In this document: in pieces, positions 1 to 61,965 of the stretch | Layout: the number at the start of each line of letters is the position of its first letter | Numbering within the stretch: position 1 is the stretch's first letter | Position numbers and translations under genes: made by a program | Assembly (NCBI RefSeq): GCF_035084215.1 | Contig: NC_090352.1 | Location: 33,108,001-33,172,000, forward strand | DNA length: 64,000 bases | From: Heptranchias perlo | Taxonomy: Eukaryota | Direction: 5' to 3' | The notes under the pieces: generated by a model | Databases searched by the model: none | The model's input: the letters and a program-made list of their open reading frames with translations, nothing else | Told to the model about the DNA's origin: nothing

Positions 1-2165
1 CACTCTCAAGACCAACCGTAACATCGTCATCAAACCAGCGGACAATGGAGGAGCCATCGTCAGACAGAGCAGAACGGACTATTGCTAAGAAGCATACCGA
101 CAACTGGACAACCAGGAACACTACAGACGGTTACCCGCAGATCCGACCAAAGAACACACCCACCAGCTCAACAAACTGATCAAGACCTTCGATCCAGACC
201 TTCAAAGCATCCTACGCACTCTCATCCCACGTCCTCCCCGCGTGGGAGACTTCTACTGCCTCCCAAAGATACACAAAGCCAACACACCCGGACGTCCTAT
301 CGTATCAGGCAACGGAACCCTGTGTGAGAACCTCTCTGGATACGTCGAGAGCATCCTGAAACCCATCGTACAGGGAACCCCCAGCTTCTGTCGCGACACT
401 AAATACTTCCTACAAAAACTCAGCACCCACGGACCAGTTGAACCAGGAACACTTCTCACCACGATGGACGTCTCGGCACTCTACACCAGTATCCCCCACG
501 ATGACGGCATCGCTGCAACAGCATCAATACTCAACACCAACAACAGCCAATCTTCAGACGCCATCCTACAACTCATCCGCTTCATCCTGGATCACAATGT
601 CTTCACCTTCGATAACCAGTTCTTTACCCAAACACACGGAACAGCCATGGGGACCAAATTTGCACCCCAATACGCCAACATTTTCATGCACAAGTTGGAG
701 CAGGGCTTCTTCGCTGCACAGGACCTCCAACCAACACTATACACCAGATACATCGATGACATTTTCTTTCTATGGACTCACGGCGAAGAATCACGAAAGA
801 GACTACACGATAACATCAACAAGTTCCATCCCACCATCAAGCTCACCATGGACTACTCCTCAGAATCGGTTTCTTTCTTGGACACACGAATCTCCATCAA
901 AGACGGGCACCTCAGCACCTCACTCTACCGCAAGCCCACGGACAACCTCACGATGCTCCACTTTTCCAGCTTCCACCATAACCACGTCAGAGGCCATCCC
1001 CTATGGACAGGCCCTGCGAATACACAGGATCTCCTCAGATGAGGAACGCGATGGACACCTACAGACGCTGAAAGACGCCCTAGTAAGAACGGGATATGAC
1101 GCTCGACTCGTCGATCGACAGTTCCGACGGGCCACAGCGAAAAATCGCATAGACCTCCTCAGAAGACTAACACGGGACGCAACCAACAAAGTACCCTTGG
1201 TCGTCCAGTACTTCCCCGGAGCGGAGAAACTACGCCATGTTCTCCGCAGCCTTCAACATGTCATCGATGACGACGAACACCTCGCTAAGGCCATCCCCAC
1301 ACCTCCACTACTCGCCTTCAAACAGCCACCCAACCTCAAACAGACCATCGTTCGCAGCAAATTACCCAGCTTTCAGGAGAACAGCGTCCACGACACCACA
1401 CAACCCTGCCACGGCAAACTCTGCAAGACATGCCAGATCATCGACACAGATACCAACATCACACGAGAGGACGCCACCCACCAGGTACATGGTTCATACT
1501 CCTGTGACTCGGCCAACGTTGTCTACCTCATGCGTTGCAGGAAAGGATGCTCCAGAGCATGGTACATTGGCGAGACCATGCAGACACTGCGACAACGGAT
1601 GAATGGATACCGCGCAACAATCGCCAGACAGGAGGGTTCCCTCCCAGTCAGGGAACACTTCAGCAGTCAAGGACATTCAGCCACCGATCTTCGGGTAAGC
1701 GTTCTCCGAGGCGGCCTTCGAGACACACGACAACGCAAAATCGTCGAGCAGAAGTTGATAGCTAAGTTCCGCACCCATGAGGACGGCCTCAACCGGGATC
1801 TTGGGTTCATGTCACGCTACATGTAACCCCACCAGCGAATAAAATTTATCTGTTTTTAATGCAACGGGTCATTTTCTGTCTTTCTCTTCCTTTCGGATGT
1901 TTCTCCCTCTCTCTGTGTTTTGTGTTCTGGCCGTTAGTATAGTCGGTGGTCCTGTCGGTAACGCCTCTCTGTCTGAAAACTTTAATTGCCTTGACAACGG
2001 GCAGTTGGAAAGATTATCTGTAATCACCAGGTATTGTTCTCTGAATATAAATGCGAAACGATGAAGGATTTCCACATTCACCTGACTAAGGAGAAAGCCT
2101 CCGAAAGCTTGTGATTTTCAAATAAAATTGTTGGACTATAACCTGGTGTTGTAAGATTCTGTACA
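1..2165 (+). mobile_element. Penelope-like retroelement (RT + GIY-YIG endonuclease), 5' end off-window, disabled by a stop at 86-88 and a frameshift near 988; 3' pLTR-like tail
   Basis: RT motifs FYCLPKIHK, GTAMGTKFAPQYANIFM and RYIDD are in ORF 242..1042. The GIY-YIG motif NVVYLMRC...WYIGETMQTLRQRMNGY and C-terminal GLNRDLGF are in ORF 438..1826. The frame switches at HHNHV/EAIPYGQALR. The tail 2070-2165 matches the palindrome at 15539-15734. Confidence 0.93.
2077..2115 (+). ncRNA. Minimal type I hammerhead ribozyme remnant in the Penelope pLTR (core mutated)
   Basis: TCAC-CTGACTA-A-GGAGA-AAG-CCTCC-GAAA-GCTT-GTGA. It matches the CUGANGA/stem II/GAAA architecture except G8>T at 2087 and one stem II mismatch. 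Confidence 0.6.
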
Positions 2166-7268: not shown

Positions 7269-7427
7269 GTTGTCAGCCAGCGTTTTCCCCAGAACAGTAT
7301 AGGTGCAGTGGGAAGTGCTATGTTCTTAAGATTCATCAATCCTGCTATAGTGTCTCCCTATGAAGCAGGAATCCTTGATAAGAAACCTCCACCTAGAATT
7401 GAACGGGGATTAAAGTTGATGTCAAAG
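7269..7427 (+). CDS. NF1: Neurofibromin exon (legacy exon 24), RasGAP domain with FLR motif
   Basis: ccctgcag|GTT...AAG|gtaaaa; 159 nt; VVSQRFPQNSIGAVGSAMFLRFINPAIVSPYEAGILDKKPPPRIERGLKLMSK. Confidence 0.98.
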
Positions 7428-27662: not shown

Positions 27663-29072
27663 CTAAACAACCAGTGGTGCCAGCATGGTGAGAATCATGA
27701 GGTCGAGGGTGATCCCTGTACACACATGTGCTTTTGAGGTTGTACCTTGTACTGTTACATTTTGGTCCATACTGTTTGTTGTTCCAGTGGTCAGATTGAT
27801 AGAAGCAGTCTGAATGGTACTTGAGATACTTCTCATTGCAACGTGAGAAGTAGTTGCATTGACGATACTTGGCTCGAAGGTTGACAGTGATACTGATCCG
27901 TTGGTCTGGCTGTTCATAGTTGCATTGGAACTGTTGACCATTGCAGTGGATTTAGTTGAAACAATGATGTCAGAGGTGAGTTCAGGAGCTGTAATGGACA
28001 TTGTGGATGATGGCCTCTTAGTTGTTTTGGCAGTAACACTCGGCATATTGCTTGAACTTTCAGCGCTGGACATTGTTTGATTGGAAATATTCCGAGTTAT
28101 TTGTGTTGCAGGTTTACGAAAGGAGCTTTGTGGTGGAGAATTCAAACTAGTATTGGTGACTAATTGTGAGAGGGGTGAAGTTCCAGTTTCTTGACTAGCT
28201 GAAGTGTGAAATGTACTTTTTTCATTCTGATGTCTGTGAGCTGAAATGTGACTTGGCAGTGTAATAGTACTTGGGTTAGAGGTGGAGGTTCTTTTGTGAC
28301 TGCATGTAGTTTCTTCAGTACATGGGCATCCATGCACAGTTGCTGTGGTCTCCCTTACCCATGTCAACAGATAGAATATATCCTGTTTAGAGTTGCATGC
28401 CCAAGGATTTGTGTTTAGTGTCATCAGTTGCAAACCAGTGAGTTCATTAAAAGTACCATTTGGAATAAATTTGAAATCGTTGTTGTTCAGATACAATTTC
28501 GAGAGACCGGCTTGAGGAAAAGTGCCTGGGAGAATTTGAAACAAGTTGTTGTGTGATAAGTCTAAAGTATTCAAGTTGTTGGGCATGTTGGTTGGGACTG
28601 TCGAGAATCTATTTCCACTGAAATTGAGGAAGTTGAGGCGAGTCAATGTGTTCTTAACGAAAAAAGTTCTTTCAATCATGTTGTTCGACACATCCAGTTT
28701 TTTCAGGTTCCATTGGGTGGCTATGTCATTCTTCACAAGTATTTTGATGCTATTGCTGGCAGCGTGGATTTCCCACAGCGCCACCGGCAAATGAGTAGGC
28801 ATGTTACTGAGCTGATTGCTGGATATGTCAAGGATCCTCATGTTGATGAAACGGGTCAGACTGTTGTCGAGATCTTTAATGCTGTTGTGGGAAATGTTCA
28901 GGGATATGACATTGACCTGGATGCTCTCTGGAAGTGCTGTCAAGCCTCTGCCTGAGCAGTTCACGAACCTGTCATTTTGTGTGCATGAACACTCTGAAGG
29001 GCAGGTGGCCGTGGTTGAAGGTAGGATGAACAAAAGGGCCAAGAGGCAACCAGATAACCTGAAATATCCCAT
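27663..29072 (-). CDS. OMG: Oligodendrocyte-myelin glycoprotein, 469 aa, single coding exon
   Basis: Acceptor cttccttatag|GACAACA ATG (exon starts 29079). Signal peptide MGYFRLSGCLLALLFILPSTTA, LRRNT CPSECSC...VNCSGRGLTALP, about 8 LRRs, LRRCT NPWAC...YLLTW, Ser/Thr-rich stalk and hydrophobic GPI-type C-terminus. Syntenic position inside NF1. Confidence 0.96.
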   Translation of the reverse strand: MGYFRLSGCLLALLFILPSTTATCPSECSCTQNDRFVNCSGRGLTALPESIQVNVISLNISHNSIKDLDNSLTRFINMRILDISSNQLSNMPTHLPVALWEIHAASNSIKILVKNDIATQWNLKKLDVSNNMIERTFFVKNTLTRLNFLNFSGNRFSTVPTNMPNNLNTLDLSHNNLFQILPGTFPQAGLSKLYLNNNDFKFIPNGTFNELTGLQLMTLNTNPWACNSKQDIFYLLTWVRETTATVHGCPCTEETTCSHKRTSTSNPSTITLPSHISAHRHQNEKSTFHTSASQETGTSPLSQLVTNTSLNSPPQSSFRKPATQITRNISNQTMSSAESSSNMPSVTAKTTKRPSSTMSITAPELTSDIIVSTKSTAMVNSSNATMNSQTNGSVSLSTFEPSIVNATTSHVAMRSISSTIQTASINLTTGTTNSMDQNVTVQGTTSKAHVCTGITLDLMILTMLAPLVV

Positions 29073-30188
29073 TGTTGTCCTATAAGGAAGATAATTGAAC
29101 ATTAGATTGTTTGCCCTCTGCAAAAAAAAATAACATTCAATCTGTCATTTTCTAAAATTGCAATATGAGAAGAACATGATCATTTTAAAACAAAATGTTA
29201 CCATGTAACATTCTCTGGATGAGCAGATGGATAAATCATCTGCACGCAGACTAGGATATGAGCATGGACTGCCCAAAGCAACAGGCTGCCTGTTTTCCTC
29301 TGACTACCAGCCCATCTCCCCTCTTTCCACCCCCCCCCCCCCCAAAACAAAATAAAATATACTGTCCAAGTACCAGACCTCAGCTCAGAGTCCCTTCAAT
29401 GAAATGCCTTGGCTGAGGAGATAATCGCATCGAGAATCTCGAGCACATGCCTTGCATTCTAATACTCCTGTGGCACAGTTCCAGTATGGTGCTAGTGCGT
29501 GCCTCATGCCTGGCTGTGTTTAAGAACTTAGATGTCTGAATGCTCCATTATTGTTGCCTGTGATGCAACAACTAGATGTAGAAATGTTCTGGAATGAATA
29601 AATCAATACACAATGTTGCAGCAAATGATATGTGCCAAATTGCTATGGTCGTGTTGTGATTGTGGTTTCTTACGATAGTCCTGCAATAAAACGTTCTTGA
29701 TAAATTACGGATTTTTTAAAAATCTAATTTTGATAGTGTTTTAATTTGTGTAACTTACTGCTCTATTTCTTATGAAACGTTATGGTTTTTTTAATTAAAC
29801 AATTATATCATCAAAAAAGCTGTACTGTGACATTCATAATGATTAAGAAAGGCTAGTTGTAATGATATATTCATTCTGCACTAAACTGCCAGCATAATGC
29901 AAAAATCAGTTCTATTTTGATAGCATCCCCCTTTCATACAAAAAAAATTGCTAAAAGGTTTAGTTCTGTGGGGAAAAAAATCCTGTATACGGTTATTTTA
30001 TTTTATCATTGATAGCAGAATTACAGCTGCTGTCTTGGGTTCTATATTTGCAAGCACTGCGTAAAAATCCATTCTAGCTGTTCTCGACAAATTCTTTTTT
30101 TCTCTGCAGTCTCCGGGAAATGGTGCAAGTGAGAAAAATATTACAAGTAAGAACAAAAAAAAACTTATAGACAACATAGTGGACTTAC

Positions 30189-41077: not shown

Positions 41078-42208
41078 TTAGACTTCCAGCTCAGAGAGCG
41101 GTGGTGGCAAATCGAAATCATTCACAAGATCCAGAAAATCCAATGGAGGAGGGGGAAAGTTTGTATTATTTGGACCTACGTCAGGAACCCCCTGAGGTGG
41201 GCCTCGAGCCTCTGTAACTGTTGCAGGCAGTGGATGTTGTGGGTCATTGTTATTCAGTGGAGCTTGTGCCTCAAGAGGAGGTGGTGGAAAATCTTGACTT
41301 TGTGTTCCATTTACAGTTTGTGTTTGACTTAAAGCTTGTGTTTCTTTTCCTGTTTCATTTTCCATTTTGACTTCAGCAGGCACTATGATCGTTCCTTCAA
41401 TCTCAGGTGAAGAACTGTTGATGATTCCTTCAGACTCTTGCACCTCCATGTTATATTGATCCAGTAAGGATTCACGTTTAGATTTTTTAGACAGAAAGGT
41501 GGTGAGTGAGGGGCGTTTCGCTGGAGCAGCATCGATATCGTTGTCCTCAACTACATGTACAGAATCTTCACCACTGGGGACTGGGCAAGTTCCTGCCCAT
41601 GTGAGGTCCTGTACAGGTTTCTTTTGTGAGCATCTTTTCCACACTGGAATGGCAACTATGATGAGCAACATTAACAACAATATCCCACCGATGATGCAAG
41701 CAACGATCGTGCTTGCAGCCAAGTCACGATCTTGGTACTGGGTCGTTGGCTTACTGGTCGTTGGCTTACTGGTCGTTGGCTTACTGGTCGTTGGCTTACT
41801 GGTCGTTGGCTTACTGGTCGTTGGCTTACTGGTCGTTGGCTTACTGGTCGTTAACTCAGTAGTGGTCTGTTTTATAGTTGCCACGTACGAAGTAGGTTTG
41901 GAGGTCGAACTTGGAATCGATTGTGCCTCAGATGAAAATTTCGATGTGAACTGTGAAGTAACAGAAGGTGTATTTGCCAAGATAGAAGTGTCACTGGGAA
42001 GATCACTTGAAGGCCCACTTATGGTGGTTGGCATACTTGTGATTATCCAGGAAGTTGCAGTGGCCAGGTTACTGGAGTCCTGAAGTGAAGATGATGCACT
42101 TGGATCTGTTACAATATCTGATCCTGTGGATGACTTGTAGTTCACTGTGGTTGTACCCCCAAGGCCCTTTGCCAGTAGTACCAGTATAGTCAAATGGATT
42201 GCTTCCAT
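41078..42208 (-). CDS. EVI2B: EVI2B (CD361), type I transmembrane mucin, 376 aa, single coding exon
   Basis: Signal peptide, Ser/Thr mucin ectodomain and TM IVACIIGGILLLMLLIIVAIPVW. The cytoplasmic KPVQDLTWAGTCP..GE resembles human KPVLNDQNWAGRSPFADGE, and the Pro-rich end LPPPLSELEV is also similar. Lies between OMG and EVI2A. Confidence 0.93.
   Translation of the reverse strand: MEAIHLTILVLLAKGLGGTTTVNYKSSTGSDIVTDPSASSSLQDSSNLATATSWIITSMPTTISGPSSDLPSDTSILANTPSVTSQFTSKFSSEAQSIPSSTSKPTSYVATIKQTTTELTTSKPTTSKPTTSKPTTSKPTTSKPTTSKPTTSKPTTQYQDRDLAASTIVACIIGGILLLMLLIIVAIPVWKRCSQKKPVQDLTWAGTCPVPSGEDSVHVVEDNDIDAAPAKRPSLTTFLSKKSKRESLLDQYNMEVQESEGIINSSSPEIEGTIIVPAEVKMENETGKETQALSQTQTVNGTQSQDFPPPPLEAQAPLNNNDPQHPLPATVTEARGPPQGVPDVGPNNTNFPPPPLDFLDLVNDFDLPPPLSELEV
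41741..41852 (-). repeat. Perfect coding minisatellite, 15 nt x 7.5, encoding (TTSKP)7
   Basis: GGTCGTTGGCTTACT repeated 7 times plus 7 nt, with no mismatches. Confidence 0.97.
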
Positions 42209-51245: not shown

Positions 51246-54200
51246 TGGCTCCCTTCCTTTCTCTAGGAAAGCACTTGTTTCTTCTCCCTTCCCCTCCCCA
51301 CCTCCGTTAACTGTATAAAGCTGGACCAACACTAACAATGCCATGACATTTTATATTTCTAATAATTCCTTCAGTTTGCATCATATATGTGAAAAGATCG
51401 GGCAGTACAATCACAATGTTAGGGTGAACTCTAGCATTTATTTACACAAGCCAGTCATGTCATTAACAATTTTAAGAATGCAAAATCAACAGATTGAAAT
51501 GTGGCCAGGAACACAAGTGAAAGTATACAAATCATTCCAGAACTTGTGCAGTTGTCTCGCTTCAAAGATATTTAATTGGCACAAAACTGAACAGCTTTTT
51601 TACTAACCCTAACCTGCTTTACTGATTAACAAAATGTATCAACCAGTCCAACTGTTGGGTTACTTAATCCATTTAATTGGTAAATAGGTGTAGCCTTTAG
51701 ATTTGGCTCGTTAATCTGATCCGAAAACCCTACTTTCTTGATTTTGCTTGATTAAAAAGACAAACAAATTTGATTCTCCAATCGAAGTATTTGTTGCACT
51801 AAATTGACTTTTCTAGACTTCCTGGCCGCGCCTATTATTTCATTTTGAGCACCAACCTATATTGTATGCGATGTGCATGCCTCTGAGATGTTTCATTTTT
51901 GTTCGCCACAAACTTCAATCCAAATTATTGAAAGACTCTCAAAAAGGACTTTTTTAATTGGCCACCTTTTCAATCTGACACTCCGTAGCTGTTGGTGACA
52001 CTTTGCATTGCGATTAGCTCCACCTTTGGGCTACTCCCAAGTGTTACTCCTGTTTTCACCAAGTATTTTATGATCCCTTGACTATTTTTGTCAAGCACAT
52101 CAGACAGTTCTGTGGAGCTTGAAATAAAGACAGGAAATGCTGTCAATACACAGCAGGTTCACCAGCATTTGTAGAGATGGGTTAATGAGGACCACTTAGA
52201 TTAATATAGCATCTTCAATGTCGAAGAACATCCCGCAGTGCTTCAGAGAGGCACAAGGACAACATTTTGGGTTTTGAACTAGAGCCTACGACCAAAACCT
52301 GATTAAGCACCTTTGTTAAAGGTTATTAATTTGTGCTACAGTTACACAGGCATTAATTAGTTGCCTTACAGTACCCCATTCCCCCCCCCCCCCTTTCAGA
52401 CGCTGGCAGACCTACTGTGCATTTCTAGCATGTTGTGTTTTTATTTATTTTCCAGCAATTGCAATTTTTTCATCTTTTTTCTTTGCATTGCATTGTTTCA
52501 AACCATTTAAAAGTTTAACTTTTCTCATTGAGTTTGCAACTTTATTTCTCTTATTTTTGTCATAGTTTTTCCTTGTATATTAAATGTTACTGTTGCTTAC
52601 TGCACGTACATTGCAAGCAAGATAAGTTAGCAGTTTCACTAAAGTATAAATTTGAAAATAAACGGTTACATTTGAACTTCCACAACGATCCTGAGAGATG
52701 AATTACCTGAGCTGTCAACCCCTCAGTTGTAACTTGAAGTGCTGTGAACAGGTGTATATTCAAGGTATTCTCTATTGAGGTTGACAGGAATAAGTAACTT
52801 AGTTTTTGTTTGAAATTGGTATCTTGGCAGCCTACAATTGGGAATAATGGTTTAGAATGCACATTATTTGAGGCTATGCTAAGTCTCACTTGTCTTGAAC
52901 TAAAGGAAATTCTTCCTTGCACAAAGAGTGGAAGTGAAAAATCTGGAATCTTTTAAGGAACAATTGGATGCCAGAATGATGGGACTTCAGGATCCTTTTG
53001 GGTGGATTAACTGAGATGGCCAAATGGATTTCCTCATCTGTTACTGTCTTGTGAAAGTGTTCAGTCTCACTAGCTTTCTAAGTGACAATCCAATTTGTCT
53101 TGGTATGAAACTTTGAGATTTCTGTAGTGGACAAAATGAAGGCAAGAAACTCATCAGTTTTACTATTTTTTTTTTAAAAAGGGCTCCCAAAACATGTGCA
53201 CAGCAAATATATCACTGAAATTGGTTTTAGAAATTTGGCATCTCATGAGTTGGAGGAAAATCAGGACAGTTTTTTTTAAAGCCTGCAAATGGTGGAAACC
53301 TGATACAAAAACAGAAAATGATGGACATATACAGGTCAGCACCTGAGGAGAGAAAAAGTTCACATTTCAGGTATTGCCAGCTTTCTTCAACCAGTTTGTT
53401 GGTCATTCAACCCATCAACTCCCCTCTCTCTGATTGGAGTACTGGTTTATTTCCCCTTTTTTCTTTTCCCCAGCCTTACTAAAATGATTGAATTTTCAGT
53501 CTGATGCAGGATATACATCCACAAGGGTAATTTTTCTCTTTACAGATGCTGACTGGCCTGTTCTGTATTTCCAGCATTTTCTGGTTTTGTTGGAGAAATT
53601 CAGTGGTATTTGAAACCTTTGCTGAGTGGTGATGCTCTTTAAACCCCATCGTGGAGTCCGATATCATATAGTATTCAGTGTTAGTAGGAATGTTTGACCC
53701 AGCACAGCTGTAGTTGGATATATAACTTCTTCCACAATTCTCTTGCCCTTTGGGACACCATTTAACGTGATGGTCCCTTTAGTATTTGAAACTTCCACCA
53801 CAGCGAACAAGTTGCCTGAACCAATCATGTCCTTTCCCTCTAAAATCTTGAAAACATCAATTGGGTCACCCATGATGCGTGTTGGCATTGAGATCCTGTT
53901 ACTTAGGGCATCATTTGTCAAGGCCTCTGAACAACTTGCGGAAGTGATAGTTAGTATCTTATTCCCCCCCTCAATTTTAATTCAACACTTCTGGTGTGAC
54001 AATTAAGGCTGCAGTCGAGTACAGAAAAGTTTGTAAAACTTCTTTTTGGGAATCTACTACGTGGAAACATTGTTGTATTTGTTTATATCCTGCTGCCTTT
54101 GGTAATGAGTTAGGTTGAAGGATTTGATGAGACAAACGTTGGGTTGGTTAGTTCTCAACAACCATTTACTACATGAATTGTACAGCTGATAGTTTAGTGA

Positions 54201-54407
54201 GTACTTAGCAAGTCAGTGTTGTATATTTGAGTCGGATGGGCTCCAACACTGACTAATTGCATTCATCTCTGAACAATAATTTACGTTGCAGATTCCTGGA
54301 TTGTGTGTTTGGGCTTAGTGGAGAAAAAAGCTGTTAGAATTGACAGTGCTGGTGCTATGGTTGTGGATTTCTAGGTGTTCAAGATGAGGATTGAGACAAG
54401 TGGGTTA

Positions 54408-54413
54408 TTTATT
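54408..54413 (-). terminator. EVI2A: Candidate polyA signal of EVI2A
   Basis: AATAAA on the minus strand about 300 nt after the stop. Confidence 0.45.
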
Positions 54414-54710
54414 AAATGAACACATGGATGATTCCAAACAAATCTGTTGAAAATTGTTAACTGGGTCACCAAGGTATTTACATTTTACCTTGTCTGCTCT
54501 TCCCTTTCTCCAAAGAATTTGTGTGGTTTAAAAATACAGGTATAAAAAGCACTTGTGTTTTACTGAGAATTTCTTTTGTTTGAGTATTCTGATTTGTGGC
54601 AAATTAGATATATTGACTTTCACAACAGCACAAAAAAACCTGATCAGTCGACTGAGATCAGTCCGATTTACTGCCTTTTCTGTGTCAGCTGGACTTAATG
54701 GTTTCCTTTC

Positions 54711-55496
54711 TCATTCTTTTGATGGCTTGGCCTCTTCCTTTGCCTTCAGAGGTATGACTTCTGCCAGCATTACGTTGGTTTCCGCTGACTCGCCTGGCAG
54801 TTGGCTGGAACCAGTAGGCCAGAGACTGGATGTCTTAACAAAGTCAGAATTGCCTCTCATTCGCCGCTTTTTCAGGCTGACCTTGAGATCTGACACCTGA
54901 TAGGCCAAGGCAGCTGTTGATACCAACAAGATAGTGCACAGAATTATTAATATGCCTATTATGATTAAATAAATCAAAAGTTCTCTGCATTTTGTGCTTT
55001 GACTTGAAAGAGAATGCTCAGTAACAATTTCTTTGGTAGTTGTCAAAAAAGGAGTTGTACCATAAGCAGTGTATTCATTTCTCGCGGTTTTCGAAAGAGG
55101 ATTTGCACCATTAGCAACATATTCTTTTTTAGTGGTCACCGGAAAAAGACCCGCACCCTCAGTAACGTATTCTTCCTTGGTCGTTACAAGATGATCTGGA
55201 CCCTCAGTAACGTATTCTTCCTCGGTTGTTACAAGATGATCTGGACCCTCAGTAACGTATTCCTTGGTCGTTACAAGATGATCTGGACCCTCAGTAACGT
55301 ATTCTTTCTCTGTCATTACAAGAAGATCTGGACCGTCAGTAACGTATTCTTCCTCGGTTGTTACAAGATCATCTGGACCCTCAGTAACGTATTCTTCCTC
55401 GGTGGTTGTTTGAAGAGTGTTGGCCTTGATCTGAGCAGACAAAAGGGCCAATATTCCAGCTGCCACCAAGAAAAGTTTTTTTATATATCGATTCAT
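54711..55496 (-). CDS. EVI2A: EVI2A, type I transmembrane glycoprotein, 261 aa, single coding exon
   Basis: Acceptor cattgacag|GTGAAGTCCCAAGAACA ATG (exon starts 55513). Signal peptide ends ..QIKA. TM LIYLIIIGILIILCTILLVSTAALAY and tail RGNSDFVKTSSLWP match recalled human LICLIIIAVLFLICTFLFLSTVVLAN...RSNGDFLASGLWP. Confidence 0.94.
   Translation of the reverse strand: MNRYIKKLFLVAAGILALLSAQIKANTLQTTTEEEYVTEGPDDLVTTEEEYVTDGPDLLVMTEKEYVTEGPDHLVTTKEYVTEGPDHLVTTEEEYVTEGPDHLVTTKEEYVTEGAGLFPVTTKKEYVANGANPLSKTARNEYTAYGTTPFLTTTKEIVTEHSLSSQSTKCRELLIYLIIIGILIILCTILLVSTAALAYQVSDLKVSLKKRRMRGNSDFVKTSSLWPTGSSQLPGESAETNVMLAEVIPLKAKEEAKPSKE
55156..55410 (-). repeat. Coding tandem repeat, 45-nt unit (one 42 nt), 6 copies of TT(E/K)EEYVTEGPDHLV, plus 3 degenerate copies to about 55018
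   Basis: CC(C/G)TCAGTAACGTATTC recurs at 55156, 55201, 55246, 55288, 55333 and 55378. Confidence 0.95.
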
Positions 55497-56964
55497 TGTT
55501 CTTGGGACTTCACCTGTCAATGGATCATTTAAAAAAAAGTTGTGATTTGTAATTTTGTACATACGTATGTTTCATACTGAAGTGAGAGAACAGCAAAGAA
55601 ATCTGTTCAAACTTGAACCCGGTCAGACTCCAGTTTTTTCCTCCAATTACTCTCCATCTCTGCTGAATATGCAACTCACACTAGGATCAGTAAAATACAA
55701 ACACATTTTATACCTATTAAGACTTTTTGCTTCAGTCCTGTTCCATTTGTTCTGACCCTGTGTCTCCATGTCACATTCTGCAGTTCTATGAAATGAACGG
55801 GCTTTATACTTTTTGACCGTCTGAAGGGACTCCATCCATTGGGTATGAAGAACCTCAACTTTCACATTGCTGAGAACTGGAAGGGACAATTTTTTTTTTC
55901 TTGCCCATCTGTTACTCCCGCTCCAAGATTTTGAATCCTTGCTGTGGTGCAGGTGCCCTGTCGAAGTGGCTGCTATTTGTATGTGAGCCTACCTGCTTTG
56001 AGCAGGGGTTCATTGGATAGCATTGTAAATCTGGACAGGATTCTGCCTGCCTTCCTGGGCTCCAAGGCCAAATTAGTCATCCTCACTAAGATCAGCTACT
56101 CTTGGCTCACCAGAATCCATGACCTTCCTGGTTGATCTGACCCAGTAACTTGCTGGATGAATGCACCGAGCCACTGAAGAGCCTTAAGGGACAACTCTGT
56201 AATCTTTTAATGGTTGGAATGGTCTCAGTTCTCATACCTAACCACAGGCTAATACGATGAGTGGTTGAACCATATTTTGCTCTTGACATAATACTGAACG
56301 CTGTTTCATTTTCCACGGACAGCGCTTTTTGGGGAAAATTTAAAATCCAAAATCTTCAGCTTGTCCCTAACGGCTTTAAGAAATTCCTTTCATTAAAAAA
56401 ATAATTAACACTTTCAGTTTAGAAAGTTGTGACATCCCGTTAAGAGCAGTTTCAGTTTGGATGGCTTTAAAGTTTCTTCAGTCTGGAAGAATCATTTCAT
56501 TTTTCCTTTTCCAATTTCCCTCCTCCTTTGCTTCAGGCAATGACTCTTGCTGGGATATGTTTTACACACACCATTGTCTGGGACATTGCCCAAGCACCCA
56601 TTCTTGTGTGGCAATAGTGAGTGTCAGTGGGTTATTTGACCATGCATCACAACCGTGTCCAATGTTATCACCCAGCGCTCGCTTGCCAGCTGCGGTCAAT
56701 AGATAGCATGGGATTTACAACATGCAAATGACACTTGGCCTGACCCTGTGCTCCACACAAGAAGTCATCCCTCGCTGATCCCATATTTGTTGATCTGCCT
56801 TTCCTTCAACCACCTATCGAACCTATTTTCACAAGTTAACATAATGGCTGCTTCAATCACTAGTATATTCCATAGCCTCACAACCTAGTGTTTTTTTTTT
56901 AAATAATTCTCCTGCTCTCAGTTCTAAATCTCTTACAGTTAATCTTGAATCCATGTTTCCTCAT

Positions 56965-58135
56965 TCTAGACCTGTCTCCAGCCTTTGACATGGTTGACCA
57001 CATCATCTTCCTTCAATGCCTCTCCTCCATCATCCAGCGAGGTGGGACTGTGTTTGCCTGGTTACATTCTTATCTATCCAATCATAGCCAGAGAATCACC
57101 TGCAATGGCTTCTCTTCCCGCTTCTGCATAGTTACCTCTGGAGTCGCCCAAGGATCTATCCTTGGCCCTCTTCTATCTCTCATCTACATGCTGTCCATTG
57201 GTGACATCGTCTGAAAACACAACATGGGGTTCCACATGTACGCTGACAACATCAGCTCTACTTCACCACCTCTCTTGACCCCTCCACTGTCTCTCATTTG
57301 TCACACTGTTTGATCGACATCCAGTACTGGATGAGCAAAAATTTCCTCCAACTAAATATTGGGAAGACCAAAGCCATTGTCTTCGGTCCCCAAAACAAAC
57401 TCCGTTCCCTTGCCACCGACTCCATCCCTCTCTCTGCCCACTGTCTGAAGCTGAACCAGACCGTTCGCAACCTTGGCGTCCTATTTGACCCGGAGATAAG
57501 CTTCCGACCACATATCTGCTCTGTCACCAAGACCACCTCTGTAACATCGTGCGCCGCTGAAACCCTTATCCATGTCTTTGTTACCTCTAGACTCGACTAT
57601 CCAATGCTCTCCTGGCTGGCCTCCCATCAGCCACTCTCCATAAATTTGAGCTCATCCAAAACTCTGCCCATATCCTAACTCGTACCAAGTCCATTCACCC
57701 ATCACCCCTGTGCTCGCTGACGTGCGTTGGCTCCTGGTCCAGGAATGCCTCAATTTTAAAATTCTCAACCTTGTTTACAAATCCCTCCATGACCTCACCC
57801 CTCTCTATGTCTGTAATCTACTCCAGTCCTACAACCCTCCGAGATCTCTGTGCTTCTCCAATTCTTGCCTCTTGCACATCCCCGATTTTAATCGCTCCAC
57901 CATTGGCGGCTGTGCCTTCAGCTGCCTAGGCCCTAAGCTCTGGAATTTGCTCCTTAAAACTCTCCACCTCTCTCCTCCTTTTAAGACACTCCTTAAAACC
58001 TACCTCTTTGACCAATCTTTTCGTCACTTGTCCTGATACCTCTGTGTGGCTTGGTGTCAAATTTTGTTTGATTGCTCCTGTGAAGCGACTTGGGACGTTT
58101 TACTACATTAATGGCGTTAAATAAATGCAAGTTGA
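56965..58135 (+). mobile_element. L2-type LINE RT/3' fragment
   Basis: LDLSPAFDMVDH, GVAQGSILGPLL, MYAD, WMSKNFLQLNIGKT, VRNLGVLFD and FVTSRLDY; L2 tail. Confidence 0.92.
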
Positions 58136-58159
58136 TATTGTGCCCTGCCCTGCCATGAT

Positions 58160-58500
58160 TTTAAACACCTCTATCAAATAACCCCGTAATCTTCTCTAAC
58201 AAAATCAGCCCCATTTTTGAAGGCTTTTTTTGTATTTGTGTTTCCTCATACCAGAACAATCTGTGCTGCATCCTCTCTATTGCCTCAACATTCTTCATAT
58301 GGTGTGGAGCCCAAAACTGCACACAGTACTTCAACTGTAGTTTTACTGAAGATTTATATAGATTCACTACAACATCTCGACTTTTATATTCTATACCTCA
58401 TGTCATAAAACCCTGTGTTCCATTAGCTTTTTTTAATAGCTTATTCACTTGAGATGCTGCTTTGAATGTCTTGTAAACTTGAACCCTCATCCCTCTGCTC
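58160..58500 (-). mobile_element. Old CR1 fragment
   Basis: ORF 58161..58367: MNLYKSSVKLQLKYCVQFWAPH. Confidence 0.8.
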
Positions 58501-58944
58501 TTCCATGTAACCCATCAAAAGTAGAAGTGTTGGCTGATTTTTCTTGTTCCTCACCCATCTCCAGGTTTTGGGGCACTGTTAGTGTGGCCCTCACTGATAA
58601 TGGATAGCACAGACTGGCGACTTTTTTCCTCCATGGTTGTGTGTTCCACCTAGTACTCCATTTATTCTTTAGGCCATTGAGGGAGGGTGGCGGGGATTGC
58701 AGGGTTGGCAGAGATGTATGCCATTTTACTTCCTTCGGAGTTCAGATTTGCATTCTGTTTGAAGGCTGGTAGTATTGTCATGAGGTAATGAACACAGAGG
58801 TGAGCTTCAGCTAATTGTGTATTGCTGAAAAATTTTAATTTAAATGAGGCTCCACATTCTTCTGAGTTAACGCATTGTTGTGCACTGTACTGAATGTACC
58901 CTGTGGTTGTAATGTATCATGACTGTTGAATTAGAGATGTAAAC

Positions 58945-59650
58945 AGTGTGTCCCCCAGGGGGGTCAATACTTGGGTATCGAGTGCACAAAATGAAAATTT
59001 GCAGGTTATCTGTCGAGAGGACTGGGAAACAATTTCAAAAGGATATAGGTTAGTAAATCGGGCAGAAAGATGTAAGATGAAATTTGATGTGGAGAATGAG
59101 GTGATGCATTTTGGGATGGAATATACACTAAATGGTAACTTCAGAAAAGTGGAGGAGCAAAGAGATTTTAGCTTCAGGTGGACAAATCTTGAAAAGTGGG
59201 AGCTTCAAGTTGATGAAGCTTAATTCTGATTAAGGTGTCCACAGTCACCAAGGGTTTTTGATGATCAGCGGGAAAAACTATTTCCACTGGTTGGTGAGTC
59301 AGTACTAGAGGGTATAAATTTAAAACAAAAACTGAAAATGCTGGAAACACTGAGCATCTGTGGAGACTGACCTTCTTAGCGGTTTCCAGCATGTTCTGTT
59401 TTTGTTTTAGATTTCCAGCATCTGCATTTTTTGGGGTATAAATTTGACATTGCTAAAGAACGAAGGGAGAGGTTAGGAAAAACGTTTTTGCATGTAAGGC
59501 CCTATCAGTGGTTGGAGAAGAATCCATAATTGCTTTTAAACGGGATAAATAATTTTTAAGGATATGGGAAAAGGCATGGGATTATAGATAAGTGGATAGC
59601 TCCTTCAGCGGGCCAGCACATGCGATGTGTCAAATGGCCTTCGCCTGTGA
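58945..59650 (+). mobile_element. Old CR1 fragment interrupted by a palindromic insertion at 59322-59433
   Basis: GTGTCCCCCAGGGGGTCAATACTTGG, MKFDVE..EVMHFG and TRGYKF. The insertion is flanked by a 12-bp direct repeat GGGTATAAATTT. Confidence 0.75.
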
Positions 59651-61965
59651 TTTTATTCCTGCCTTTATTGATTGTAAGGCTGGTCCATAAAGGATTTTGG
59701 CACATCCTCATCCCCGGTGGCTGGAGGAGCACAGCGCAAAGCTACCCATAAATTAGCTCTAATTGTAGCACCAGTGGAAATTACAAATTGGTACAGTAGG
59801 GGTCGGGACAGAGTAGGAGAAGCATTATTCTGTATTTGCCCATGAGATGTCTGATACAGATCACCCAAATGGAAGCAGTATTCCTTTCCCCTCCACTGAC
59901 AAACTTCATATTGATGAAGTATTTAAAAAAAGTAATAACTAAAACTTGTAAATTAAAATTTGCTACCCTGTGTACATCATACTATAACAATGAATACTTT
60001 AACTTTTGTTAATGTCAAAAGCTGTGCATTGTACAAAATAGAAGATGCATTCAAAATTGAGCAAAAATGGAGATTTAAATCATAGTTGTGCTTTTGTAAT
60101 TTTTAAATATGGATTCCTTGTTTAGGCCATACTTGAACCAAGTTGTTTGGACAAAATAAATGTGCAGTCTTGTAGATACTCTAATACTTTGCAAAGCGAG
60201 GGTTGCACTAGCTCATCATTTTCTTAGTTTCCCAAAATGTCACTGACATTGAAGAGCTTATATATCTATCCAGACAATGAGAATTTTGTTATTTTCAGCA
60301 CATAATTTAATTTAGAGTCTCTCCGCTTTGAAAACGTTAAACCCGTGCCTGTGCTTCTCTACTTGAATTCACTATCTCAATCGCATTGCTGTGAAAAAAT
60401 GTGAGGGGCGAGATCAGCTGTTCCTCTTCAGAACAGAGAAAGGTTGTAGGGAGAGTCACCTAGGGATGTTGGTGTGTAATAACTAGCATCATTGGAGCAT
60501 TTGATGAAGGTGCGAGAGTAGACCATGGTCAGGAAAGTTTTGTGGGGCAGAGGAGCTCAACTCGGGATTTGAAAAATTCCTTGAAAAAGGAAAACAGAGC
60601 TTTACCGCTGCTCTAAAAACGACCGAGTTGTATTTCCCTATTTCTGTCCCAATCCTCCCCCTTCCTCGGCCACAGGCTCTGTAATCAGCTGGTAAGGAGG
60701 CACACTATAACCAGCATGAGCTGGCCTTTCAGTTTTACCTTTCTCCCTCGTATATTGTCTCCATTTCTCAAATTTTGCTCTGCCTGTTCTGTTGCTATAT
60801 ATTTTTAAACTGGATGTTTTCTGAACTATTAAACAAATCAAGTACAAAGAGTAAAAACTACGAGAAACTTTTTGACAATTTCTGGGGGATCAGAAAGGAA
60901 AGAGAGGTTTCCTCCAGCTCTGCAAAATTGAAGTAAACATGTCAAAACTCTCCAAAAGCTGAGATCAATAGTTACAGTTCTTCAAAAACCTGCTCTTGCA
61001 TTTTCTGCTATGTCAAAGATCTGGTTGCAAGATTGAATGCAGCAAATGTTTGTTAACCGAGAGAAATCCAACAACTGCAACCTACCTCCAGCCAGCTCCT
61101 GATTCAGTCACTTTTCTTAAGTGTGGGTGAAGTATACTCCTAGGTCCAGTGATTTAGCCCAGTTGCTTTTCAAGGTAATGACTTTATTGATGTTGGAGCA
61201 GATTGTGATTGAGAAATACTTGCCCAATCCCTTCTATGAATAAGTTGCACCACTATATTCGGTATCGATGACGTTGATGGACCACAAAGGATTAACATAT
61301 TTCCTATGCAGCAAAAGTGCAATTTCTAAATAGAGCTGCTTGATGTTTTTAAAAATGACCTCAAACTAATGGTTTAAAAAGTGGTTCTCCACATGAGCTG
61401 CTGATGGAAGATTTTTTTTTGTGTTGTAGGAGTGGCTGAGAAAATAAAAATAGAAAATGCTGCAAATACACTAAATGTAAAAAAGTGATGGGTCAATGTT
61501 TTGAATGTCAGGCCTTGGCCAGAATAGAAATTTGTAGGAATGAACAGCACAAAAGGCGGGGATAGGAGACCACAGGTAAAGGTCAAATCCGGTCTGCTGA
61601 CCTTTGTCACACAGAGCCAGTTACTGGATTCAGTCAAGAAGTTGAAGGAACATGGATATCAATCAATTATAAAAGAAAATTAATTCTTCTGGAAAAATTG
61701 AAATGGTCTTGGTGAACTGTGACACTTGAAATATGTAGGTATTCCCCAATGTTACTGTGTGGTTTAGTGTGGTACCAGGCTGGAAATTTTCTGGAACAAC
61801 CTCTAAAACGTTCGCTCTGCTGGTTGTGATGCTAATTTAATGAAAGTGAAATTTAAAAGAAGTTTTTTTTTAGAAGTCCATTTACTGCCATTTAGATTGC
61901 AGAACGGCATTCACCTGTGCTGCTTCACAAATCAAAGACCATTAAGAGCATAAATTTAAGATAAT

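Follow-up and report, generated by a model that had tools for sequence, protein, structure and literature searches.

The EVI2A gene of Heptranchias perlo, which lies within the 64,000-nucleotide stretch of DNA analyzed here (the window), encodes a membrane protein with a periodic array of acidic-tyrosine units in its ectodomain; presumed RNA of this species contains a spliced form that lacks the transmembrane (TM) helix. Our tentative reading is that the conserved acidic Tyr-x-Thr-x-x-Pro array, predicted to be disordered, may serve as a sulfated, O-glycosylated, multivalent bait for basic immune proteins, chemokines first, and as a secreted decoy in H. perlo.

Based on the available excerpts of PMC4031500, EVI2A is a protein of no known function that lies close to the B-cell receptor in cells of the chicken, and homology searches in 2014 revealed no feature shared with other proteins; the available parts of PMC11497181 and PMC6896060 add nothing mechanistic on EVI2A. 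In the open-licence literature, supplements excluded, we found no paper stating the array, the exitron or a paralogy between EVI2A and PSGL-1 (SELPLG, CD162). The contribution is an unannotated conserved periodic array, a likely paralogy that is probably unreported and a TM-removing exitron, all in a known gene with a known class of modification. The link to PSGL-1 makes EVI2A function testable through dimerisation, ERM binding and leukocyte adhesion. Shark EVI2A represents a natural, periodic, predicted multi-sulfotyrosine ligand, possibly soluble, that is relevant to avidity in selectin and chemokine binding, and it bears on how leukocyte trafficking arose in jawed vertebrates.

Identity and genomic setting of EVI2A

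The minus-strand ORF at 54711-55496 encodes a 261-aa protein in which a predicted signal peptide is followed by the repeats, a single TM helix and a basic tail (Table 1). The first-pass annotation named this gene EVI2A, and the name is borne out by Pfam (PF05399, EVI2A: 61.1 bits, E=1.5e-16, gathering cut-off 25), by its position within an NF1 intron and by phylogeny. The gene is antisense to NF1, and OMG-like and EVI2B-like genes occur on its strand; we take OMG-EVI2B-EVI2A to be the usual gene order within the NF1 intron. The name OMG presumably holds for the first of these neighbors by that same order, and the EVI2B-like gene, which had no Pfam family above cut-off, is named by position and on the same assumption. 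The upstream NF1 exon was found, and the downstream NF1 exon was not seen within the window. In a quick tree of 72 rows and 90 columns, the chondrichthyan EVI2A rows, including Callorhinchus EVI2A, formed one clade (SH-aLRT 98), and PSGL-1 was placed on a long branch apart from EVI2A; hhalign aligned elasmobranch EVI2A to bony-vertebrate EVI2A with E=1.5e-24, versus E=8e-12 to PSGL-1. By synteny and tree, the window gene is the EVI2A ortholog. An in-frame ATG at 55562 was considered as the start codon and rejected as intronic, given zero presumed-RNA depth and the predicted acceptor at 55514..55540.

Table 1. Features of the window, with positions numbered from its first nucleotide
Feature	Position	Strand	Basis
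EVI2A single coding exon, 261 aa, membrane form	54711..55496	-	ORF, PF05399
Predicted signal peptide, residues 1-25	55422..55496	-	N-terminal hydrophobic stretch; model helix 2-31; cleavage site by eye
Six homogenised 14-16-aa units T-T-E-E-E-Y-V-T-[ED]-G-P-D, residues 31-120	55137..55406	-	TRF, unit search
Two diverged border units (Tyr126, Tyr142/145), which fail the sulfation rule; KKEY unit common to catsharks	55062..55136	-	
Tyr-less relic unit, residues 152-160, within exitron	55017..55043	-	translation
147-nt in-frame GT..AG exitron, residues 146-194: nearly whole TM helix and both Cys	54914..55060	-	RNA joints
TM helix, residues ~174-197, apparently homologous to the PSGL-1 TM	54906..54977	-	KD19 hydropathy 3.32; pLDDT 78-90; profiles
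Cytoplasmic tail, polybasic KKRRMR and family motif R-x-N-S-D-F/LW	54714..54905	-	alignment
Predicted splice acceptor (poly-T tract and CAG), 17 nt upstream of ATG	55514..55540	-	sequence
3' UTR, ~3.3 kb, AATAAA at 51442-51437	51426..54710	-	RNA contig ends extrapolated from record lengths
NF1 GAP-domain exon (host gene)	7269..7427	+	neurofibromin PDB chains, E~1e-29
OMG-like LRR gene	27663..29144	-	LRRNT and LRR Pfam matches, synteny
EVI2B-like mucin-type membrane gene	41078..42208	-	synteny

All nine elasmobranch EVI2A database records are labelled "uncharacterized" or "mucin-4-like". A public H. perlo protein (P0002) equals the window EVI2A except for one 49-residue gap. Word-index searches with the EVI2A tail region or with alignment A1 yielded no new proteins, and PDB sequence searches gave weak chance matches at most for alignment A1 (best E=0.035) and none for frog PSGL-1. 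The ESM Atlas held no usable match to the ectodomain; the neighbors of the TM and tail were EVI2A (0.82, 0.80) and DUF4689 (0.81), all below 0.9 and treated as leads only. DUF4689 (PF15755), the rank-2 neighbor of residues 160-261 of the window protein (P0001), is a possible third paralog at the level of a lead; we take it to be C16orf54, which adjoins CD43/SPN.

Other elements of the window include a coding repeat in the EVI2B-like gene (41736-41852, minus strand; 15 bp x 7.7, 99%), whose five-residue Lys-Pro-Thr-Thr-Ser unit is basic and so has the opposite charge to the EVI2A units. At 89-1826 (plus strand), a frame for reverse transcriptase (RVT_1, E=1.3e-9) overlaps a second frame that presumably resembles a GIY-YIG endonuclease; the two represent a frameshifted Penelope-like retroelement in an NF1 intron. 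Very high-copy LINE/SINE-like fragments lie at 56990-58220 and 59122-59720, in the intron that precedes the EVI2A coding exon, where DNA-run depth exceeds 1e5.

The acidic-tyrosine array and its predicted modification

TRF identified a 45-bp unit in 5.7 copies at 55155-55407 with 88% matches. In the protein, six E-Y-V-T-[ED]-G units (Tyr 36, 51, 66, 80, 95 and 110) are followed by EYVANG (Tyr126), EYTAYG (Tyr142/145) and a Tyr-less EIVTE. The first-pass annotation described six near-identical 15-aa units and three degenerate ones; the array itself stands, but the exact 15-mer occurs in only one of the six units, and one unit is 14 aa long. When anchored on each Tyr in order, identity to that 15-mer is 14, 13, 13, 12, 15, 9, 7, 4 and 2 of 15. 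Over 30 nt, units 1-5 differ from one another at 1-4 positions, and the differences climb to 4-6 for unit 6, 7-9 for unit 7 and 10-12 for unit 8, so the gradient of repeat decay noted earlier is real. The absence of N-X-S/T sequons was likewise confirmed here (residues 25-173), but it fails as a general contrast with other EVI2A proteins: because 8/8 other elasmobranch species carry 1-4 sequons, it is a trait of this species. A rodent EVI2A (P0036, gundi) has five sequons and lacks the repeat.

Our elasmobranch set comprised the window protein and those of eight other species (horn shark, two catsharks, three bamboo/epaulette sharks, sawfish and electric ray). The array is present in all nine proteins, with 5-8 units in each. 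The earlier interpretation had been tied to the occurrence of the acidic-Tyr motif in other chondrichthyan orthologs, where we found it throughout the elasmobranch set and once in a chimaera: Callorhinchus EVI2A has no array; its single E-Y-D-Y-N-T-E lies close to the N-terminus, and the mucin repeat that follows is unrelated. Among 58 bony-vertebrate EVI2A representatives (names were checked for 15 of these rows, of which 9 carry or cluster with the EVI2A name), none has the array or the motif, and four have any acidic Tyr. This count leaves out P0052 (unrelated repeat protein), P0053 (fused model), P0054, P0056, P0061 and P0067 (N-truncated), the chimaera and four PSGL-1-type matches. Three unnamed fish-clade EVI2A representatives (P0045, P0046 and P0057) have an N-terminal acidic Tyr, perhaps a remnant of an ancestral site. 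P0053 is a 673-aa model in which the EVI2A TM and tail are fused to an OMG-like LRR protein, probably by gene-prediction read-through of the nested cluster.

Identity among the repeat units of one species is higher than, or close to, that between species (within-species identity 0.98 in horn shark and 0.71 in electric ray); window units have 0.65 identity among themselves and 0.69 to horn shark units. Catsharks, Scyliorhinus canicula among them, have a 30-aa double unit, and bamboo sharks have a compound unit of ~66 aa (proteins with higher-order repeats: P0004, P0008-P0010). The first-pass annotation read the decay gradient as ongoing N-terminal expansion, a reading not supported here: all nine proteins have 5-8 units, a membrane-side KKEY unit is common to the window protein and catsharks, and in two rays the N-terminal units have also decayed. 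Concerted turnover at constant length, with old border units, fits better than net N-terminal growth. A single ancestral N-terminal site, as in the chimaera, would have been amplified in the elasmobranch stem, and the array would then have turned over by unequal exchange without changing length.

A unit search blind to whichever column was being scored (Tyr-blind for the Tyr count) recovered Tyr in 52/56 units, Thr at +2 in 57/63 and Pro at +5 in 47/57 across the nine proteins, whereas the commonest residue was found at the acidic positions in 37/64 to 46/63 and at the +1 position in 31/63; these units are non-independent owing to concerted evolution and related species. Tyr is the best-kept column in its own blind search. 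It is thus the modification-directing residues (Tyr, Thr, Pro), rather than those that supply bulk charge, that are kept best, a pattern suggestive of recognition. AlphaFold, run on a 10-row alignment, gave pLDDT <50 and no secondary structure over residues 28-166 and a confident helix at ~171-200. That the array is either a neutral coding minisatellite or a folded beta-solenoid is very improbable: the unit core is kept across sharks and rays, the weak match to an ice-binding beta-roll family (PF21300, E=0.005) scored 17.4 bits, below its cut-off of 30, and the AlphaFold model has no strands. On the last two grounds we rejected the solenoid fold.

Elasmobranch ectodomains are 112-213 aa long, with a net charge of -11 to -31, 16-24% Ser/Thr and 20-24% Asp/Glu, whereas bony-vertebrate EVI2A has plain mucin in place of the array (means of 33% Ser/Thr and 8% Asp/Glu). 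This composition, together with the predicted disorder, the plain mucin of the matching region and the roughly constant ectodomain length, would suit a charged spacer, an anti-adhesive glycocalyx like that of CD43 in which sulfate and glycans add only charge and extension and engage no specific partner. We consider such a spacer unlikely, as bulk charge predicts the reverse of the observed pattern: conservation is higher at Tyr, Thr+2 and Pro+5 than at the acidic positions, and Glu has often given way to Lys.

We scored tyrosine sulfation with a rule whose features come from Table 2 of PMC7310474, as available to us, and whose thresholds are our own: a luminal, disordered Tyr with an acidic residue at -1, several acidic residues within five positions, turn residues, few basic residues and no nearby Cys or sequon. 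The same source, in the part available, states that disorder favors sulfation. Five of nine window Tyr pass the rule, as do 40/77 ectodomain Tyr across the nine proteins; the TPST sulfation context proposed in the first-pass annotation is thus predicted from sequence. Composition shuffles of the window protein had a mean of 0.67 passing Tyr, and 0/2000 reached five, although the non-independence of the units overstates this significance. In catsharks, where Lys occurs near Tyr, 4/9 and 3/5 Tyr pass. TPST probably sulfates about five Tyr per EVI2A chain, and there is a reasonable case that O-glycans are added at Thr+2 or the TT pair.

An in-frame exitron that removes the transmembrane helix

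Contigs of a DNA run (X1) and of presumed RNA runs X5, X6 and X7, all from one sample, were mapped on 52500-61500. The runs presumed to be RNA (X5-X8) have zero depth in the upstream intron (zero at 55510-56713). In both X6 and X7, one 3.6-kb contig skips 54914-55060, with depths of 45.8 and 123, respectively, and a short side of 142 nt. Because of the zero intron depth, and because their extrapolated ends (51426 in X6 and 51453 in X7) fall near the AATAAA at 51442, we interpret these contigs as EVI2A mRNA. The skipped segment is bounded by GT..AG on the coding strand, is 147 nt long, in frame and stop-free, and is seen in presumed RNA and not in DNA, with no microhomology, all of which identify it as an exitron. 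A genomic deletion was rejected, as the DNA contig of X1 is continuous across the segment, and a reverse-transcriptase template switch was rejected on the basis of the GT-AG ends and an overlap of only 1 nt.

In X5 there is no joint, and the contig breaks exactly at 54914, possibly at a fork. None of the RNA contigs listed spans the skipped segment, and contigs drop minor forms; the depth of 22.5 in the X6 bin is fully explained by the spliced contig, whereas in X7 and X5 small depth residues are left in the skipped bin, for which repeat contigs could account. Translation of the spliced form yields the public model P0002, which probably rests on RNA of this same sample.

The spliced 212-aa form has neither a TM nor any Cys or sequon; beyond residue 30 its highest KD19 is 0.38, against 3.32 in the membrane form. 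Its product is predicted to be a secreted chain of 187 aa with a net charge of -18 before modification. The tail would be luminal, exposing KKRRMR, formerly the stop-transfer signal, in which RRMR would be a convertase-type site. Because the assembled RNA of two of the three runs lacks the TM, most of the array in H. perlo is predicted to be secreted. The product may then compete, in soluble form, with membrane-bound EVI2A.

Thr-Ala codons supply the acceptor AG, and the alignment has Ile at that position in 8/8 other elasmobranchs; because of this, the exact splice event is specific to the lineage, in which an Ile-to-Ala change would have made the acceptor and hence the exitron. All eight other elasmobranch models keep the TM. 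It is quite possible, if short of an even chance in our estimation, that the exitron is a cryptic intron that a random substitution created in this one species or animal and that is tolerated, EVI2A being dispensable, with a product that has no role. The unique acceptor, a donor (ATG|GTACAA) far from consensus, the single sample and the lack of a TM-less model in any other species are consistent with such an origin. On the other hand, the TM and tail frame is intact (63-69% identity to four other species and 53% to bamboo shark), the in-frame skip takes out the TM and both Cys cleanly, and the spliced path is the assembled path at depths of 46 and 123.

Relationship to PSGL-1, candidate partners and comparison with known systems

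An EVI2A TM/tail profile (six segments), searched against 1.84 billion representative sequences, had 74 matches: 5 elasmobranch proteins, the chimaera, 63 EVI2A-type proteins, 1 unrelated repeat protein and 4 PSGL-1-type proteins. The last four matched near threshold (E 1.6e-4 to 3.6e-4); three are named PSGL-1 and come from frogs. On these three, and on none but them among the four, the Pfam EVI2A model exceeded its cut-off, with 26.1, 30.1 and 28.1 bits against 25. In hhalign, the EVI2A and PSGL-1 TM/tail regions aligned at 97.5% over 55 columns with 36% identity, compared with 0.2-8.5% for the EVI2B TM. The reciprocal PSGL-1 profile matched the window EVI2A at E=1e-3 at library size and its best EVI2A at 7.7e-6 (EVI2B control, -2 bits); the PSGL-1 rows in these comparisons are frog sequences chosen by the EVI2A profile itself, and the shared stretch is mostly hydrophobic TM helix. 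EVI2A and PSGL-1 are likely paralogs on this evidence. We take 17q11.2, 12q24 and 16p11.2 to form a paralogon that goes back to the genome doublings of vertebrates. The chimaera EVI2A isoform P0082 bears the UniRef name "P-selectin glycoprotein ligand 1" yet clusters with RefSeq EVI2A; automatic annotation pipelines have already touched this link.

The comparison with PSGL-1 drawn in the first-pass annotation is accordingly firmer than that annotation knew, on account of the TM and tail. The shark unit Y-x-T-[DE]-[GD]-P-[DE] agrees with T[D/E]PP[D/E] at four of five places, with Thr two residues after Tyr, and this near-motif is repeated, whereas the exact T[DE]PP[DE] occurs in 0/9 elasmobranch proteins. 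Acidic Tyr occurs in none of five frog PSGL-1 ectodomains (P0070, P0075, P0076, P0083 and P0084). These five frog proteins retain a furin-type site. A 2019 study of fish PSGL-1 reportedly found no sulfotyrosines in non-mammals. Because of the frog result, the PSGL-1-like Tyr site would be either ancestral and often lost or have arisen twice. With acidic Tyr also in only 4/58 bony-vertebrate representatives, the site is not a family-wide trait, and the likeness to mammalian PSGL-1 may be convergent.

Membrane EVI2A as a multivalent P/L-selectin rolling ligand of the PSGL-1 type, each unit presenting sulfoTyr and a core-2 O-glycan epitope, is a doubtful proposition in our view. The likely paralogy, the four-of-five agreement and the Thr at +2 and +10/+11 from each Tyr are in its favor, as is the sufficiency of one Tyr: in the excerpts of PMC2174952, mammalian PSGL-1 has 1-3 Tyr before the T[D/E]PP[D/E] threonine, Tyr54 and Thr58 suffice in mouse, and horse PSGL-1 has a single Tyr. 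By the same excerpts, however, horse PSGL-1, which lacks the motif, does not bind P-selectin, and the site-to-membrane distance in mammals is 247-322 aa; no separate mucin stalk of that type was found in elasmobranch EVI2A, where the whole ectodomain is shorter. Further, the juxtamembrane Cys, conserved in PSGL-1, is present in only 2/9 species, the tail bears the EVI2A motif with no PSGL-1 cytoplasmic motifs, and the Tyr are single and spaced, with no such Tyr in frog PSGL-1. The RNA-supported form here lacks an anchor, and a predicted secreted array does not fit a rolling ligand.

Somewhat more doubtful still is a fuller scenario in which EVI2A arose with PSGL-1 from one gnathostome sulfotyrosine-glycopeptide ligand gene, the site being kept on EVI2A in cartilaginous fish and amplified in sharks and rays to a 5-8-valent selectin/chemokine ligand doing the job of PSGL-1, with the exitron yielding a soluble plasma antagonist in H. 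perlo. If true, this would be the first mechanism proposed for EVI2A, an orphan gene.

The T-x-E and acidic-Tyr contexts would suit extracellular phosphorylation by FAM20C and VLK, respectively, and the array could alternatively bind Ca2+ or mineral, or thrombin at exosite 2 in the manner of hirudin, apart from leukocyte trafficking; we regard this group of roles as quite improbable. According to the available part of PMC9372746, thrombin is bound by sTyr acidic segments, but the exosite-2 binders carry sTyr clusters; moreover, chicken EVI2A is a lymphocyte-surface protein (PMC4031500, excerpts).

The reading that we prefer, as bait for basic immune proteins, draws in part on the spacing of the Tyr. 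Based on the available part of PMC9372746, most sTyr sites known at the cell surface group 2-3 Tyr within six residues, a difference from the shark array that counts against its sulfation-based role. The same source describes acidic arrays with sTyr that bind heparin-binding proteins, and a single basic surface by which chemokines engage both GAG and sTyr. The shark array, with its single Tyr 15 apart in an acidic disordered chain, resembles those sTyr acidic arrays more than the clustered PSGL-1/CCR5 sites. A multivalent, glycosaminoglycan-like array would thereby capture cationic heparin-binding proteins, chemokines most likely; on balance we lean towards such partners over a bulk-charge role.

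Like its bony-vertebrate orthologs, shark EVI2A lies next to OMG and EVI2B within the NF1 intron, is encoded by a single exon, has a type I topology and ends in a TM and the R-x-N-x-D-F/LW tail; however, it carries the acidic-Tyr array where they have an N-glycosylated mucin, and in H. perlo it has a spliced form without the TM. With PSGL-1 it shares an apparently homologous TM and juxtamembrane tail, a tandem-repeat ectodomain, and an acidic Tyr shortly before Thr in a T-[DE]-x-P-[DE] frame. In mammalian PSGL-1, as described in the excerpts of PMC2174952, one N-terminal site of 1-3 Tyr sits on a mucin that lacks Tyr and contains decamer repeats, and the Cys of the dimer is conserved, whereas in shark EVI2A the Tyr site itself is repeated, the stalk is absent and the motif is inexact. 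Fibromodulin, osteoadherin, lysyl oxidase and GPIHBP1 similarly have many predicted sTyr in disordered acidic tracts that bind heparin-binding proteins (PMC9372746 and PMC7310474, in the parts available); in those proteins the tract is irregular and adjoins a folded domain, whereas the shark array is strictly periodic and forms nearly the whole ectodomain. Finally, the skipped segment resembles the exitrons of PMC4484396, which in the available part are coding-derived, in-frame GT-AG introns inside coding exons with weak sites, including TM-removing examples noted in Arabidopsis; there, retention is usually the major form, whereas the spliced form is the assembled path in two of the three H. 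perlo runs.
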